Shown here: positions 5,451-38,310 of the stretch, piece after piece
Layout: the number at the start of each line of letters is the position of its first letter
Numbering within the stretch: position 1 is the first letter of the stretch
Translations under genes and position numbers: made by a program
Sequence record: PX946180.1
DNA: 38,310 nucleotides
DNA from: a phage
Direction: 5' to 3' (one strand)
The notes under the pieces: generated by a model
What the model saw: the letters and a program-made list of their open reading frames with translations, nothing else
The model's database searches: none
Told to the model about the DNA's origin: nothing

Positions 5451-5636
5451 ACCACATCGAAACAACGGTGAAGACCAACACTGAAACGGTCTACCTGAAG
5501 TCTTCTGACTGAAGGGAATGCTCTTTAACAATCTGGATAACTCTTAATGTGCGCCGATAGCGACTAACTACAGGGTCTTTGAGTCTACACCTGAAGGCCC
5601 TGACTGATAGTCACTAACAACTGAGAGGATATAACT

Positions 5637-7159: not shown

Positions 7160-7164
7160 TTATG

Positions 7165-7187
7165 ACTTAACTATCACTATAGGACTC
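7165..7187 (+). promoter_or_regulatory. phage RNAP promoter directly upstream of the RNAP gene, +1 G at 7182
   Basis: TTAACTATCACTATAGGACTC; followed by GACTCAAGGTC motif. Confidence 0.65.
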
Positions 7188-7256
7188 AAGGTCTAAGACT
7201 CAAAGTGAAAGACCAAAGAGACTTTAAGTGAAAGACTAATAACAAGGACTTTAAGT

Positions 7257-9104
7257 ATGAGCGTCATCTCTATTGACAAACACGACTTCTCTGATGTGTC
7301 GAACGCCATTGAGCCGTTTAACCTGCTGGCTGACCACTACGGGCAAGACCTCGCAGTAAAGCAGCTTCAGCTTGAGCATGAGGCATACACTGAAGGCGAG
7401 CGACGTTTCATCAAGAACCTTGAGCGCCAGACTGAGCGCGGGGAACTGGCAGACAATCAGGTCGCCAAGCCTTTGATGCAGACTCTGGTCCCGACCATCG
7501 CTAAGGCTTTCCGTGAGTGGCATGAAGGCCCGGACGGTAAGTCCTCGACCTCTCGTCCAAGCGTAGCGTTCACCATGCTGAGCACTGACGAGAAGGCTGT
7601 CAAAGACCGCTCTCTGCTCATCTCTGCGGAGTCTGCTGCGGTCATCATACTGAAGGTCATTCTCAGCAAGCTGGTCAAGCCTGAAGGCATCCCGATAACT
7701 CCTATGGCGTCCGCGATAGGTCGAACACTGGAAGATGAAATCCGCTTTGGTCGCATCCGTGATCAGGAGAAGGAGCACTTCAAGAAGGCGATAGCTGAGA
7801 ACCTGAACAAGCGCGCAGGGGTATCCTACAAGAAAGCCTACATGCAAGCGGTTGAGACCTCCATGTTGGAGCAAGGCCAACTGGAAGATGCCTGGGGAAC
7901 TTGGAGTCCGACCGAGGCGGTCCATGTTGGCATCAAGATGCTTGAGATTGTCATCCAGTCTACTCAACTGGTAGAGCTTAAGCGTTATGGTGCTGGCAAT
8001 GCAGCGGCGGACGTTGAGATGGTCCACCTGTCAGACTTCTGGGTCAAGAAGATGGCTCAGCGTGGCTTCTCTCTTGCGGGAATCGCTCCAGTCTACCAGC
8101 CATGCGTAGTTCCGCCTAAGCCGTGGACCGGGGTGGTGGGTGGTGGGTACTGGGCTAAAGGCCGAAGACCACTACCACTGATTCGCTTAGGGTCTAAGTC
8201 TGCGGTGGCACGTTACGAAGATGTATACATGCCTGAAGTCTACGACGCTGTGAATATCATTCAGAATACACCTTGGAAAGTGAACAAGAAGGTTCTGAAC
8301 GTGGTGAACATGGTCGAGAAGCTGAACAACACGCCTATTGATGACATCCCTCAGATGGAACCGCTGAAGCCTGAGGACTATGCGGGTGAGACTGAAGAAG
8401 AACTTAAGGCATGGAAGAAAGCTGCTGCCGGTATCTATCGCCGCGAGAAGGCCCGACAGTCACGAAGATTGTCACTGAGCTTTATCGTTAACCAAGCGAA
8501 CAAGTTCTCTCAGTTCAAGGCTATCTGGTTCCCGTATAACATGGATTGGCGAGGTCGTGTCTACGCTGTCCCGATGTTCAACCCTCAGGGTAACGACATG
8601 CAAAAGGGACTCCTGACTCTGGCAGTCGGTAAGCCTATTGGTGCTGATGGTTTCAAATGGCTGAAGGTACGCAAGAAGGATACCACTCGTCTGAACCTGA
8701 TGTTCTTAGGGTCATTCAACCTTCAGCCTACAGTCAACAAAGGCGCGAAGAAAGAGCTTGACAAACACAAGCAGGAGTCAGGTATTAGCCCGAACTTCGT
8801 CCACTCACAAGATGGCAGTCACCTCCGCAAGACTGTAGTCCACACGCACCGCAAGTATGGCGTGATGTCGTTCGCAGTGATCCACGATAGCTTCGGGACC
8901 ATCCCGGCTGACGCTGAGTATCTGTTCCGTGGTGTCCGTGAGACGATGGTCGAGACCTACCGCGACAACGATGTGCTGCTTGACTTCTATGAGCAGTTTG
9001 AATACCAGCTTCATGAGAGCCAGCGCGACAAGCTGCCAGAGCTTCCGAAGAAAGGTGAACTGAATATCGAAGACATCCTGTCTTCAGACTTTGCATTCGC
9101 TTAA
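7257..9104 (+). CDS. T7-like single-subunit RNA polymerase with ~268-codon internal in-frame deletion (catalytic motifs A and B missing; probably non-functional)
   Basis: 615 aa versus 883 aa for T7 RNAP; N-terminal ~464 aa and C-terminal ~151 aa are collinear with T7 (promoter-binding domain, specificity loop, HKQESG..FVHSQDGSHLRK, IHDSFGT, terminal FAFA); junction GFKWLK/VRKKDTTRLNLMFLG at about 8664-8669; no DGSCSG or TLAYGS motif anywhere in the ORF. Confidence 0.85.
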   Translation: MSVISIDKHDFSDVSNAIEPFNLLADHYGQDLAVKQLQLEHEAYTEGERRFIKNLERQTERGELADNQVAKPLMQTLVPTIAKAFREWHEGPDGKSSTSRPSVAFTMLSTDEKAVKDRSLLISAESAAVIILKVILSKLVKPEGIPITPMASAIGRTLEDEIRFGRIRDQEKEHFKKAIAENLNKRAGVSYKKAYMQAVETSMLEQGQLEDAWGTWSPTEAVHVGIKMLEIVIQSTQLVELKRYGAGNAAADVEMVHLSDFWVKKMAQRGFSLAGIAPVYQPCVVPPKPWTGVVGGGYWAKGRRPLPLIRLGSKSAVARYEDVYMPEVYDAVNIIQNTPWKVNKKVLNVVNMVEKLNNTPIDDIPQMEPLKPEDYAGETEEELKAWKKAAAGIYRREKARQSRRLSLSFIVNQANKFSQFKAIWFPYNMDWRGRVYAVPMFNPQGNDMQKGLLTLAVGKPIGADGFKWLKVRKKDTTRLNLMFLGSFNLQPTVNKGAKKELDKHKQESGISPNFVHSQDGSHLRKTVVHTHRKYGVMSFAVIHDSFGTIPADAEYLFRGVRETMVETYRDNDVLLDFYEQFEYQLHESQRDKLPELPKKGELNIEDILSSDFAFA

Positions 9105-9116
9105 CAGGAGAGAGTT

Positions 9117-9317
9117 ATGAAATTTGTACACAAGAAGACCGGCGTTAATGGTGGGACTCAAATAGTGACCGTAACAGAGCACAATGGTAAGGGTCTGGTG
9201 AAGACCACGGTCATCCCTACAGAGCTGTCAAAGCGTCTTAACGTAACATTCAAGTGGCTGGTTAATCTGGTTAAGCAGACACACGAGCAAGCTCTTAAAG
9301 AGGAGGCTACCAAATGA
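9117..9317 (+). CDS. hypothetical early protein (66 aa)
   Basis: Tracker ORF with GGAGAGAG RBS; no recognised homolog; T7 has no gene between gene 1 and 1.1. Confidence 0.5.
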   Translation: MKFVHKKTGVNGGTQIVTVTEHNGKGLVKTTVIPTELSKRLNVTFKWLVNLVKQTHEQALKEEATK

Positions 9318-9395
9318 CAGGCCTACAGTTGCTGGCCTTGTGGCTGGGAGCACTCGCAGTATTCACTTTAATCCAACGCAGAAGAGGTTAACCCT

Positions 9396-9866
9396 ATGTT
9401 CGGTAAGTCAAAACTTGAAGCACAAATCGTAGAGTTGAGCATGAAGGTGGCATACTTGGAGCGAGCCGTAAAGGTCCGGGATAAGGACAACGAGAGACTG
9501 AAGGCTAAACTTGCTGAATCAGAGCGTAAGCGCCTAACGCCACCAGCGGCTGTAACTGTCAAGCGTATGGTCGGCATCAAGTTCAAGGAACTGTTCGACG
9601 GTAAGTATCAGCCCACTGAGTTCAAGATAGGTCTTGGAAAGTGTGGAAAGGTGGTTCACTACTTCGAGGTGACTAAGCGTGACTACCTGACGATTACCAT
9701 CCACCAGTACCACACAGACGGGTCATCTAAGGACTTTGAGTATCGACTTAGCGACATCGACGGTCGTATACAGTACGACTACGAGCCGATGCAGGTCTAC
9801 GGTGAGGAGGCAGAGCAGGAACGTATAGTCCAAGCCTTCCGCAACAGACCACGATTCGTACCCTAA
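9396..9866 (+). CDS. hypothetical early protein (156 aa), N-terminal coiled-coil
   Basis: Tracker ORF; GAGG RBS; charged heptad-like N-terminus (KLEAQIVELSMKVAYLERAVKVRDKDNERLKAKLAESERK); no recognised homolog. Confidence 0.6.
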   Translation: MFGKSKLEAQIVELSMKVAYLERAVKVRDKDNERLKAKLAESERKRLTPPAAVTVKRMVGIKFKELFDGKYQPTEFKIGLGKCGKVVHYFEVTKRDYLTITIHQYHTDGSSKDFEYRLSDIDGRIQYDYEPMQVYGEEAEQERIVQAFRNRPRFVP

Positions 9867-9884
9867 ACTATCACTATAGGATTA
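9862..9884 (+). promoter_or_regulatory. phage RNAP promoter (phi1.1-like), +1 G at 9879
   Basis: CCTAAACTATCACTATAGGATTA. Confidence 0.75.
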
Positions 9885-9928
9885 GACTCAAGGTCATGAC
9901 TAAAAGTCGTGGCCTTCATGATTAACCC
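9884..9928 (+). promoter_or_regulatory. R1.1-like RNase III processing element
   Basis: AGACTCAAGGTCATGACTAAAAGTCGTGGCCTTCATGATTAACCC; same position (between gene 1 and 1.1) and same core as recalled T7 R1.1. Confidence 0.55.
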
Positions 9929-9957: not shown

Positions 9958-10137
9958 ATGTATCAGAACACTATCAACTTCGAGCGCATCCGTGAACGTC
10001 AACAGACTGAAGGCTACATCCCGAAGGGCCGCAAGCTGAACAAGACTAAGCGAGGCGGTGGTGTCAAGGGTGCTTTCCGCAACGCTGAAGGCAAAGACTC
10101 GCTGGTAAACCAAGAGAAGTATTTCGTAGGAGCATAA
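9958..10137 (+). CDS. gp1.1-like small basic protein (59 aa)
   Basis: GRKLNKTKR motif as in recalled T7 gp1.1; GGAG RBS; immediately precedes gp1.2 homolog. Confidence 0.65.
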   Translation: MYQNTINFERIRERQQTEGYIPKGRKLNKTKRGGGVKGAFRNAEGKDSLVNQEKYFVGA

Positions 10138-10141
10138 GGCT

Positions 10142-10405
10142 ATGGGCCGACTTTATAGTGGCAACATCAACGCTTTCAAAGCAGCGCGTAACAGACTTTA
10201 TCAGTTAGACTTCTTCGTGATACAGCAGGACTGGTACGACGCGCATTTTCGGAAAGAGTGTATGAGACTTCAAGTCGAGGACCGAGCTGGTGACATCTTC
10301 GCTCTTAAGACCTTCGCACACTACGACGAAGACGTACTGTACAACACTGCAACCGACTTCCTTAACGGTCTCGCTGACCAACTAGACACATGGAGCAAAT
10401 CATAA
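10142..10405 (+). CDS. gp1.2-like inhibitor of host dGTPase
   Basis: 87 aa; MGRLYSGN..AFKAA.N.L.QLD...DWYDA..RK.C.RL..EDR.G matches recalled T7 gp1.2. Confidence 0.85.
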   Translation: MGRLYSGNINAFKAARNRLYQLDFFVIQQDWYDAHFRKECMRLQVEDRAGDIFALKTFAHYDEDVLYNTATDFLNGLADQLDTWSKS

Positions 10406-11472: not shown

Positions 11473-11483
11473 CTAAACGTCAA

Positions 11484-11520
11484 CCCAGTGGTCTTCGGAC
11501 TGCTGGGTTTCTTTGCTTTG
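11484..11520 (+). terminator. rho-independent terminator, T7 TE equivalent
   Basis: 10-bp stem CCCAGTGGTC/GACTGCTGGG (two G-U pairs) with TTCG tetraloop followed by TTTCTTTGCTTTG; located just after the ligase gene as T7 TE is. Confidence 0.8.
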
Positions 11521-14918: not shown

Positions 14919-15134
14919 ATGATTAAACTCATCGAATTTCTTGGTCGTCTGGTGGTGCGTGGCTATCGTCGGGCTGCGGCTATGGAACGAAAGGTAGCAG
15001 CGAAGACTGCTGACGGTGCGGCTGATGCTGCTGCTCTGGCTGACAAACTGACCATCGCGTCACTGGAAGCTGGCATGAAGGCACGTCAAGCTGACACCAA
15101 AGCTGACCAGTTGGCTCAGTTCTTCAAAGACTAA
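14919..15134 (+). CDS. small conserved hypothetical protein (71 aa)
   Basis: Tracker ORF with AAGGAG RBS; N- and C-terminal motifs (LIEFLGRLVVRGY...QLAQFFKD) resemble a small T7 middle-gene product I recall only imperfectly. Confidence 0.55.
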   Translation: MIKLIEFLGRLVVRGYRRAAAMERKVAAKTADGAADAAALADKLTIASLEAGMKARQADTKADQLAQFFKD

Positions 15135-15152
15135 ACTATCACCTTAGGGATG
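15130..15152 (+). promoter_or_regulatory. degenerate phage RNAP promoter (phi4-like), +1 G at 15147
   Basis: CTAAACTATCACCTTAGGGATG, two mismatches to consensus in the -5 to -1 region. Confidence 0.45.
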
Positions 15153-15199
15153 GGACCATGAGTCCTGTCCCTTTGTTCGCATTTGTGATTAAGGAGTGA

Positions 15200-21213: not shown

Positions 21214-21236
21214 ACTAAACTATCACTATAGGGACT
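21214..21236 (+). promoter_or_regulatory. phage RNAP promoter (phi6.5-like), +1 G at 21231
   Basis: CACTAAACTATCACTATAGGGACTT. Confidence 0.8.
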
Positions 21237-21297
21237 TTAGGACCTAAGATATGACTATAAGATAGACTTTAGTCTTAACTTAAAGAGGAGATTCAAG

Positions 21298-36691: not shown

Positions 36692-38310
36692 ATGTCCACG
36701 ATTACACAATTCCCTTCAGGAAACACTCAGTACAGGATTGAGTTCGACTACCTAGCCAGAACGTTTATTGTTGTTACGCTGGTGAATAGCTCTAACCCTA
36801 CCCTGAACCGTGTACTGGAAGTTGGTCGAGATTACCGATTCCTTAATCCAACGATGCTTGAGATGTTGGTTGACCAATCAGGTTTCGACATCGTTCGTAT
36901 TCACCGTCAGACTGGAACTGACTTAGTGGTAGACTTCAGGAATGGCTCAGTGTTGACAGCTAGTGACCTGACCAATGCAGAGCTTCAGGCTATCCATATT
37001 GCAGAAGAAGGTCGAGACCAAACTGTTGACTTAGCGAAGGAATATGCCGATGCTGCTGGTAACTCTGCTGGCAACGCTAAGGACAGCGAGGACGAAGCAC
37101 GCCGAATCGCTGAGAGTATCAAGGCAGCTGGTCTAACTGGCTATATTACCCGTAGATCCTTCGAGAAAGGCTTCAACGTTACAACATGGAACGAGGTCCT
37201 GCTATGGGAGGATGATGGTGAATATTACCGCTGGGATGGTACGCTCCCAAAGAACGTTCCTGCTGGCTCAACTCCTGAATCATCTGGTGGAATTGGATTA
37301 GGAGCGTGGGTTAGTGTTGGTGATGCATCGCTGAGATCTCAGATAGCCTCCGTAACCGGATTTAATCTTGTAGGTCAGGTGCCAGATGTAACTACATTAC
37401 GCAATACAGAACCGACAACAGACAGCAAGAGAATCCTCCTTCGCGAATACACAGCAGGCACAGGATATGGTGGCGGTCAGTTACGAGCAATCCTTGACGG
37501 AAGCTCTTACGTTGACAACGGCGTTACTGTGTTTAAAACAACTGGTGGTGCTGCATGGGTCCGCGTTAACGCAGATATCATTACATCCTTCATGGCGGGT
37601 GCTGTGCCTGATGCAGGTACTACTGATAACACGGCTGCTATTAATCGCTTCCTCGCCGCAGGTAAGAAATTGGTTATGAGGGATGGTATCTTTGGTCATT
37701 CTGGTCAAATTTCTTTGCAAACAGGTATATCTCTTGATTTATCTGGAGCGACAATAAAACCATCATCGACTCTACTCACCGCTGCTTGGGTGGGGAGCAA
37801 CTTGTTTGATGTAAAAATAACCGGCGGCGTGTTTGAAGGAACTGGCTTGGACAATACAGCTGGCAACGGCCATCTTTTGCTGCTTTCTAATTGCCAAGGG
37901 TGCTACGTAGATGGCACTACATTTACGAAATCTCCGCAGGATGGATTGCGATTTGTATCTTGTACACGATGTATTGCGAGTAACGCTATTTCGTACAACA
38001 ACCTTTCTGTAGGTATTCAAGACCGCGATGGGGATTACAACACTATCATTGGGTGTAAATGTAACGGTAATGGTAATACAGGAACGGTTGCTGGAGTTGG
38101 TGGTCGAGGTATTCTCACATGGCGTAGCTTTGGCACAAAAGTTATCGCCTGTGACGCGTTCAATAACACAGAGTATGGCATTCGGGCATATTCGCAAGCA
38201 GGAGATTCCAGAGGTTCGACTCAAATCCTGATTAGTGATTGCCACACCGGCGATAACACTAAGATTGATATTTACGTGTACAACGAAATCGGAAGCCTGT
38301 CTGAGATACT
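36692..38310 (+). CDS. tail fiber/tailspike, 5' part (T7 gp17-like N-terminal adaptor plus start of beta-helix domain); continues at 1..857
   Basis: ATG 36692 with AAGGAGG RBS; N-terminal ~150 aa resemble the recalled T7 gp17 tail-attachment domain (FDYLAR.F.VVTL, DYRF, LV.DF..GS.L.A.DL, HIAEE.RD); frame stays open to the window end and continues at position 1; total about 782 aa. Confidence 0.9.
   Translation, partial: MSTITQFPSGNTQYRIEFDYLARTFIVVTLVNSSNPTLNRVLEVGRDYRFLNPTMLEMLVDQSGFDIVRIHRQTGTDLVVDFRNGSVLTASDLTNAELQAIHIAEEGRDQTVDLAKEYADAAGNSAGNAKDSEDEARRIAESIKAAGLTGYITRRSFEKGFNVTTWNEVLLWEDDGEYYRWDGTLPKNVPAGSTPESSGGIGLGAWVSVGDASLRSQIASVTGFNLVGQVPDVTTLRNTEPTTDSKRILLREYTAGTGYGGGQLRAILDGSSYVDNGVTVFKTTGGAAWVRVNADIITSFMAGAVPDAGTTDNTAAINRFLAAGKKLVMRDGIFGHSGQISLQTGISLDLSGATIKPSSTLLTAAWVGSNLFDVKITGGVFEGTGLDNTAGNGHLLLLSNCQGCYVDGTTFTKSPQDGLRFVSCTRCIASNAISYNNLSVGIQDRDGDYNTIIGCKCNGNGNTGTVAGVGGRGILTWRSFGTKVIACDAFNNTEYGIRAYSQAGDSRGSTQILISDCHTGDNTKIDIYVYNEIGSLSEI
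38184..38310 (+). repeat. assembly overlap: exact copy of positions 1-127 (circular contig artifact)
   Basis: Direct comparison: 38184-38310 is identical to 1-127 and lies inside the tail fiber coding sequence. Confidence 0.9.

Follow-up and report, generated by a model that had tools for sequence, protein, structure and literature searches.

Gene 1.05 and the slot behind the phage RNA polymerase gene

In most Studiervirinae a gene lies between the phage RNA polymerase gene (gene 1) and gene 1.1, T7 being the exception without genes in this slot. In T3 and phiYeO3-12 the occupant is gene 1.05 (PF25755, phrog_6379), which encodes a protein of 90 aa consisting of a conserved beta-domain alone and has its own promoter, phi1.05, with the origin also upstream; the complete order in phiYeO3-12 is gene 1, promoter phi1.05, origin, gene 1.05, phi1.1, R1.1, gene 1.1 and gene 1.2. 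Przondovirus homologs (phrog_6440), KP32 gp05 ('fusion protein, other name gp1.05') among them, occupy the same slot with a coiled coil followed by the PF25755 domain, and KP32 gp05 has its own N-terminal transmembrane helix in front of both. Here we describe the slot in a phage sequence of 38,310 nucleotides (record PX946180.1; the whole stretch analysed is henceforth called the window), where it holds a gene 1.05 homolog (open reading frame B, ORF B), a small basic protein of a Kayfunavirus-specific family (ORF A) and, between the two, an overlooked reading frame of 25 codons (the mini-ORF) that is predicted to encode a membrane peptide. We placed the window by BLAST against phage genomes with the region and a 15-kb stretch as queries; its nearest genomes are Kayfunaviruses (K1F, EcoDS1, ST31, Baskent_phicoli_1 and others) at ~83–92% nucleotide identity.

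A preliminary description, made from the letters of the window alone, had drawn attention to an interval of about 850 bp between gene 1 and gene 1.1 with two genes of 66 and 156 aa, both with plausible ribosome-binding sites, and had set this against the non-coding interval of T7. The interval measures 853 bp, from the end of gene 1 at 9104 to the start of the true gp1.1 homolog at 9958, and both ORFs are present on the plus strand with exactly the coordinates given (9117–9317 and 9396–9866), preceded by the Shine-Dalgarno sequences AGGAGAG (before 9117) and GAGG (before 9396). T7 does lack genes at this place, but the arrangement is unusual only with T7 as the reference and ordinary in the wider group: non-T7 members of the T7 group usually have an accessory slot here, between gene 1 and gene 1.1. 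The count of two genes needs correction as well, both being real but the spacer between them being filled by the mini-ORF at 9314–9391. The features of the slot are as follows.

9117–9317, plus strand: ORF A, 66 aa, basic (isoelectric point, pI, 10.0), phrog_8082, Kayfunavirus-specific family.
9314–9391, plus strand: mini-ORF, 25 codons, MTGLQLLALWLGALAVFTLIQRRRG, one predicted transmembrane helix and a basic tail.
9396–9866, plus strand: ORF B, 156 aa, gene 1.05 homolog with a leucine-zipper coiled coil, the PF25755 beta-domain and a C-terminal helix.
9396–9545, plus strand: coiled-coil (leucine zipper) module of ORF B, residues 1–50; AlphaFold2 helix 2–47, predicted local distance difference test score (pLDDT) of the block 86–90.
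9567–9782, plus strand: PF25755 domain of ORF B, residues 58–129, matching Pfam profile positions 2–73 of 73.
9391–9396, plus strand: direct repeat ACCCTA flanking ORF B, left copy.
9860–9865, plus strand: direct repeat ACCCTA flanking ORF B, right copy.

The ATG of the mini-ORF overlaps the stop codon of ORF A (ATGA), and 4 nt separate its TAA from the ATG of ORF B. Because of this stop/start overlap and the 4-nt gap, the slot appears to be made of three tightly packed, translationally coupled cistrons, in the order ORF A, 25-aa peptide, ORF B.

ORF B is a gene 1.05 homolog with a leucine zipper

The preliminary description recognised no homolog for either of the two larger proteins, a statement that does not survive the database searches. 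ORF B belongs to Pfam family PF25755, Phage_T3_1_05 ("Enterobacteria phage T3 gene 1.05 protein"), with 86.8 bits against a cut-off of 27 (E 9.4e-25), and matches phrog_8103 over its full length (E 6.6e-56); ORF A belongs to phrog_8082, found in 221 phage records (see below). The best database match of ORF B is 91% identical, 244 homologous clusters were found in the protein database, all of them with PF25755, and EcoDS1 already names its copy gp1.05. Elsewhere homologs of ORF B go under the names gp1.05, gp1.06, 'fusion protein' or 'microtubule-binding protein'. That the two ORFs are genuine genes, as the preliminary description supposed, is borne out by their PHROG matches (E 1.1e-37 for ORF A) and by mean pairwise ratios of nonsynonymous to synonymous substitution rates (dN/dS) of 0.22 for ORF A and 0.24 for ORF B among 8–10 related genomes.

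Comparative genomics of the interval, which the preliminary description had named as a check, puts ORF B in the same slot and order as its counterparts in phiYeO3-12, KP32, EcoDS1 and Erwinia phage L1, i.e. gene 1, gene 1.05, phi1.1 promoter, R1.1, gene 1.1 and gene 1.2. With the T3 and phiYeO3-12 gene 1.05, ORF B shares the conserved beta-domain, the position directly after gene 1 and a 3' end that overlaps phi1.1, with R1.1, gene 1.1 and gene 1.2 following. It differs from the T3 type in the 50-residue leucine zipper placed in front of the domain and in lacking a promoter of its own, the missing phi1.05 being a regulatory difference and not one of protein family. Unlike KP32 gp05, ORF B has no transmembrane helix, and a predicted transmembrane peptide of 25 aa has its own gene ending 4 nt before ORF B.

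The domain is widespread. Depending on the family member used as query, tblastn recovered it from 490–624 phage records, mostly Klebsiella phages (296–345 records), the other carriers being phages of Escherichia, Salmonella, Yersinia, Pectobacterium, Erwinia, Pseudomonas and Aeromonas. These records are ~38–43 kb long and, where a record begins at the left end, the match lies at ~5–6.5 kb. An exhaustive profile search of 1.8 billion proteins gave 151 representative PF25755 clusters, and the distant members sampled came from phage contigs of ~39–45 kb. We scanned 140 of these representatives for their architecture and could assign 139 to a class. Half of the classable proteins (70/139) consist of the domain alone, 52 carry an N-terminal membrane helix (48 of them with coiled coil and domain, four with the domain only), and the remaining 17, ORF B among them, combine coiled coil and domain without a membrane helix.

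In the AlphaFold2 model of ORF B (pLDDT 73) a helix of residues 2–47 is followed by a five-stranded beta-domain (53–134) and a C-terminal helix. The coiled-coil N-terminus announced by the preliminary description is supported both by this first helix, with pLDDT up to 90, and by the heptad a/d positions L7, I11, L14, V18, L21, V25, L35 and L39 read from the sequence. Across the 140 divergent representatives three residues of the domain are invariant (G79, C83 and Q104) and nine more are conserved in at least 90% (F76, G81, G84, V87, K112, F114, Y116, G123 and R124), forming a motif G-x-G-x-C-G ... Q ... K-x-F-x-Y ... G-R that is present in ORF B in all its parts. Among close relatives of ORF B the core of the domain is invariant. 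The zipper of these relatives occurs as two discrete alleles (AQIKELSMKVAYLERAV... and ARIAELEKLVKKQDTNL...) and one loop of the domain as two types (IGLGKCGKVVHYFEVTKRD and TGPGNCGKNVKHFTISKT), zipper and loop types being mosaically combined.

A weak PADLOC match of ORF B to HamC2 (DUF3223; E 0.0067, 15 bits) raised the idea that its domain is a DUF3223/HamC-like module, for instance a decoy of a Hachiman (type II) defence component. This match was seen in one of the 140 family representatives and in none of the other 139, and a scan of the 140 members at E up to 1 did not place DUF3223 within the top 25 Pfam families by frequency. We have therefore rejected this lead, a single weak match that the rest of the family does not share, and consider it extremely improbable.

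ORF A, a Kayfunavirus-specific family

ORF A matches phrog_8082 with residues 1–66 on profile positions 1–66 of 66. Its family comprises 147 protein clusters and 221 phage records, all at 80% query coverage or more and essentially all of the Kayfunavirus type, with a best database match that is 95% identical. No Pfam match was found for ORF A at E up to 1, including PF08200 and PF10922. Its orthologs, at 72–82% identity and in the same position directly after gene 1, are K1F 'gp1.1' (CAJ29348), EcoDS1 'gp1.1' (ACF15787) and CR44b '1.05'. In spite of these labels ORF A is unrelated to T7 gp1.1; the PF08200 match of the window is the gene at 9958–10137, which in K1F is called 'gp1.15'. The names given to the genes of this interval are inconsistent among K1F (AM084414), EcoDS1 (EU734172), CR44b (NC_023576), Dev2 (HG813241) and IMM-002 (NC_048071), and the published names of ORF A homologs, gp1.1 or 1.05, are likewise positional and inconsistent.

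The AlphaFold2 model of ORF A shows three strands and then two helices (pLDDT 75), and a fold match of this model raised the question of whether ORF A could be a paralog of gp1.2, i.e. a structural relative that inhibits a host enzyme degrading deoxynucleoside triphosphates (dNTPs) and acts as a second protector of the nucleotide pool. Profile–profile comparison (hhalign) finds nothing (probability 0.2%), there is no detectable sequence or profile similarity between ORF A and T7 gp1.2 (PDB 7u65/2mdp), the ORF A model reaches only the pLDDT just given, and the genuine gp1.2 is encoded at 10142–10405. What is left is a possible resemblance of fold, and we regard a gp1.2-like activity of ORF A as very unlikely.

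A conserved 25-codon reading frame between ORF A and ORF B

The 78 nt that first appeared to be a spacer between ORF A and ORF B are nearly invariant in a ten-genome alignment, in which the flanking genes have dS values of 0.35–1.3. An RNA structure was looked for in this spacer, and the predicted fold was not significant (z = +1.3, no better than shuffles), no covarying pairs were present and Rfam gave no match. It was the lack of an RNA structure or family that led to the recognition of the mini-ORF. In a set of 29 related loci, a few of which are the same phage from two collections, its length is 78 nt in every case, with 25 distinct DNA sequences encoding 13 peptides. The ratio of nonsynonymous to synonymous polymorphism (pN/pS) is 0.25 in frame, compared with 1.18 and 1.13 for the two alternative frames. 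All loci retain a start codon (ATG, once GTG), a GAGG/GGAG motif lies ~7–12 nt upstream in nearly all of them, and the core of the peptide has a mean hydropathy of 2.24. A search of phage records recovered this core from 219, in 162 of which it is at least 95% identical. The mini-ORF is the best-conserved part of the interval, and from the frame-specific purifying selection, the start and stop codons, the ribosome-binding site and the hydrophobic helix we predict that it is translated into a small membrane protein.

Such conservation might also be expected if positions 9318–9395 acted as nucleic acid, be it in ribosome binding for ORF B, in RNA processing or as part of an origin, and the 25 codons were not translated. 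The pS of the mini-ORF (0.30) is indeed below the dS of the flanking genes, which suggests some added constraint at the nucleotide level, and the Shine-Dalgarno sequence of ORF B sits inside the mini-ORF. However, the substitutions are frame-specific, as the pN/pS values of the three frames show, and 17 of the 36 variable columns are third codon positions. The fixed length, the start codon in every locus, the motif upstream of it and the negative results for fold, covariation and Rfam also speak for a coding function, and we judge the untranslated element to be unlikely.

In most records the mini-ORF is not annotated. Common gene callers have a minimum length of 90 nt, above the 78 nt of this gene, which would explain the omission. 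Two exceptions are IMM-002, where a 25-aa coding sequence is annotated as 'DUF2842 domain-containing protein', and CHRF_10022, with a 38-aa extended form. The DUF2842 label, which comes from RefSeq, is not reproduced by a Pfam scan. No relatives of the 25-aa peptide were found in Pfam or PHROGs. In its general build, very short, with a hydrophobic helix and a charged end and encoded early, it is like PhiNM1 Gp11, a small single-pass membrane protein expressed early by its phage. Bacterial type I toxin-like peptides are also very short, with one hydrophobic helix and a charged end. The Pfam and PHROGs searches found no sequence relationship of the 25-aa peptide to small membrane proteins or toxin-like peptides of these kinds.

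Gain and loss of genes in the slot

K1F has no ORF B, and its sequence is joined exactly at the 6-bp repeat ACCCTA (K1F locus 5540–5560), the two copies of which flank ORF B in the window. The same is true of eight more of the 29 related loci, so that ORF B is missing from nine, each joined at ACCCTA; all nine keep the mini-ORF, whose stop codon then runs straight into the promoter. ORF B behaves as a cassette that is lost (or gained) by recombination at a short repeat. In Citrobacter phage SH3 (1012–1482 of its locus) the reading frame of the gene 1.05 homolog is interrupted once, by a stop at codon 71, and is otherwise intact, which may reflect either recent pseudogenisation or a sequencing error. 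The precise deletion in K1F-type genomes and the nonsense codon of SH3 show that ORF B is naturally dispensable.

The slot as a whole is a hot spot of accessory gene gain and loss. EcoDS1, for instance, has an extra ORF of 76 aa (phrog_28104; 1621–1851 of its locus) between gene 1 and its ORF A homolog, and different small genes accumulate in the slot in different phages.

The predicted early transcription unit

The surroundings of the slot contain the following promoters, RNA elements and genes.

7160–7192 (core 7170–7184), plus strand: phage RNA polymerase promoter before gene 1, with an exact ACTATCACTATAGGA core; position weight matrix (PWM) score 37.6, among 10 strong sites.
9857–9889 (core 9867–9881), plus strand: phage promoter equivalent to phi1.1, overlapping the stop codon of ORF B.
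9882–9925 (12-bp upper stem 9890–9916), plus strand: R1.1-like RNA hairpin, candidate RNase III site; minimum free energy −17.3 kcal/mol, z = −2.83.
9958–10137, plus strand: true T7 gp1.1 homolog, 59 aa; PF08200 (E 5.6e-11), phrog_4383 (E 4.8e-42), dN/dS 0.05.
10142–10405, plus strand: gp1.2, dGTPase inhibitor; PF10922 (E 2.1e-34), PDB 2mdp and 7u65_G (E ~4e-32).
11482–11509, plus strand: early terminator (TE-like), a 12-bp stem and then a T-run, directly 3' of the ligase gene.

The conserved promoter and R1.1-like element that the preliminary description placed after the two ORFs are both there, with the promoter core at 9867–9881 and the hairpin at 9890–9916 (z = −2.8). This promoter lies where phiYeO3-12 has phi1.1, at the 3' end of its gene 1.05, and where a promoter is annotated in EcoDS1; phiYeO3-12 likewise annotates the R1.1 stem-loop at the same relative place, and TE is annotated at the place of the terminator in both EcoDS1 and phiYeO3-12. 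Between 9000 and 9866, i.e. before ORF A or ORF B, no phage promoter was found, the best PWM score being −7.6 against 36–43 for real sites. With no promoter between gene 1 and ORF B and a terminator after the ligase gene, we infer that the three small ORFs share the message of gene 1 and are probably of the early class (class I). The wording of the preliminary description, early-region accessory genes, agrees with these predicted signals and with the natural dispensability of ORF B.

Strong copies of the phage promoter number ten in the window (core ACTATCACTATAGGA, site CCTAAACTATCACTATAGGA). The one at 7160–7192 is of full strength, lies ~75 nt 5' of gene 1 and is followed by ACTCAAGGT, as is the phi1.1 promoter. 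Transcription from this site by the phage polymerase would cover the polymerase gene itself along with the three small ORFs; in T7, to our knowledge, gene 1 is not preceded by a phage promoter. Farther downstream there are a weaker promoter-like site at 15125–15157 (score 25.9, ACTATCACCTTAGGG) and a degenerate copy at 21238–21270 (score 11.9) that immediately follows the promoter at 21219.

A deletion in gene 1 and the state of the assembly

Gene 1 itself departs more from its relatives than the slot does.

7257–9104, plus strand: gene 1, T7-type RNA polymerase, 615 aa, with an in-frame internal deletion of 834 nt.

Residues 1–471 of the polymerase in the window align with residues 1–471 of the ST31 enzyme and residues 461–615 with 738–893, so that the deletion corresponds to ST31 residues 472–749 of a full length of ~893 aa, with the junction near 8668/8669. 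Motif A (DGSCSG) and motif B (KRSVMTLAY) are missing, and motif C (HDSFG) is kept. The polymerase should be inactive and, judging by sequence, a genome of this kind would need help to have its middle and late genes transcribed. No phage record in the collection searched spans the junction in a single match, whereas 197 records match its two sides separately. The deletion belongs either to a defective variant or to an assembly error, and is more unusual than the genes of the slot. An 11-nt repeat, CTGATGGTTTC, lies ~15–20 nt upstream of both breakpoints in ST31.

Positions 1–127 of the window are identical to 38184–38310. Identical ends of 127 bases are a signature of a circularly closed assembly (k-mer 127), which is what the window looks like. 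The genome is also permuted with respect to K1F, position ~5096 of the window aligning with K1F 246.

What the three proteins may do

The check by homology and structure that the preliminary description proposed has identified the families but provided no functional link, be it through PADLOC, Pfam, PDB or fold searches. No catalytic family was found for these proteins in Pfam, NCBIfam or PADLOC, and searches of the PDB, one with the 140-member family profile included, gave no meaningful sequence relatives for either ORF A or ORF B. The dN/dS values of ORF A and ORF B are ~5 times that of the neighbouring gp1.1 (0.05); the C-terminus of the RNA polymerase was excluded from this comparison because the segment spans the deletion junction. 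Together with the mosaic alleles in the zipper and loop of ORF B, this faster evolution fits proteins that face the host.

With a confidence that is only a little better than even, we favour the view that the three cistrons encode small, non-enzymatic binders of host or phage partners that act early, near the inner membrane. The message of gene 1 would be read early by the host RNA polymerase, and later from the phage promoter at 7170, as far as the terminator after the ligase gene. All three products would then bind host (or phage) partners stoichiometrically at or near the inner membrane early in infection. Dimers of ORF B would form by way of the leucine zipper, with the conserved beta-domain serving as the binding module. 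In other genera the PF25755 domain is free, as in T3, or has an N-terminal helix that anchors it in the membrane, as in KP32, and in Kayfunaviruses a separate, predicted membrane peptide is encoded immediately upstream of ORF B. Stoichiometric binding is suggested by the small size of the proteins, the lack of catalytic signatures, their evolution at ~5 times the rate of gp1.1 and the early neighbours that act on host proteins, of which gp1.2, acting on dGTPase, is a characterised example in the window; the inner membrane is suggested as the site of action by the frequent membrane anchoring of the family and by the adjacent membrane peptide. The parts of this view are not equally strong. Identity, synteny and accessory status are firm, binding and membrane location are what we infer, and a role in host takeover or anti-defence, also put forward in general terms by the preliminary description, is a reasonable guess made from position only.

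Several points weigh against this view. The structural models are moderate (pLDDT 73–75), and that of ORF B has no PDB match beyond its helix. Literature searches on gp1.05, PF25755 and the accessory genes of T7-like phages returned annotation tables only and nothing functional. The timing of expression is deduced from consensus sites only, and the T3-like gene 1.05 has its own phage promoter, so that 'early' does not hold for the family as a whole. Finally, the peptide is not simply the detached anchor of ORF B, as genomes without ORF B retain the mini-ORF. We had considered it as such an anchor, and this idea is weakened both by its persistence where ORF B is deleted and by Erwinia phage L1, which has no mini-ORF.

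Another reading would have the ORFs serve phage DNA replication or transcription at the primary origin, as small basic DNA- or RNA-binding factors within the cluster of origin and promoters. ORF A and ORF B are both basic (pI 10.0 and 9.3), and in phiYeO3-12 the annotated replication origin overlaps the start of gene 1.05, as this reading would have it. T7, K1F and all nine of the 29 related loci that lack ORF B are nevertheless viable, neither ORF A nor ORF B matches a DNA-binding family, the AP2 score is no better than that of unrelated folds (LptE, chaperones of the type III secretion system, AcrIF24) and many PF25755 family members are membrane-anchored, all of which makes a role at the origin rather unlikely.

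A more specific version of the early-binder view can be offered as tentative, and we think of it as possible but doubtful. In it, PF25755 would be an early effector whose N-terminal module (none, zipper or membrane helix) sets the site where it acts and which, with ORF A and the peptide, would disable a membrane-associated host function or defence. If this were true, such an effector would span the 490–624 records of T7-like phage genomes with the domain, many therapeutic Klebsiella phages included.

Implications

ORF A and ORF B are new copies of known and widely annotated families in their ordinary position, and do not represent a new kind of system. What is new here is the predicted membrane-peptide gene of 25 codons, which most annotations miss, and the view of the gene 1.05 family as having three architectures. 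For the scanning of genomes there is a caution in that an interval which seems overfull beside that of T7 is the norm in the wider T7 group. Phage therapy work makes use of both Kayfunaviruses and Przondoviruses, which gives their early accessory proteins a practical interest. The gene 1.05 family is very widespread among these phages, and its three architectures hint at a role close to the membrane.

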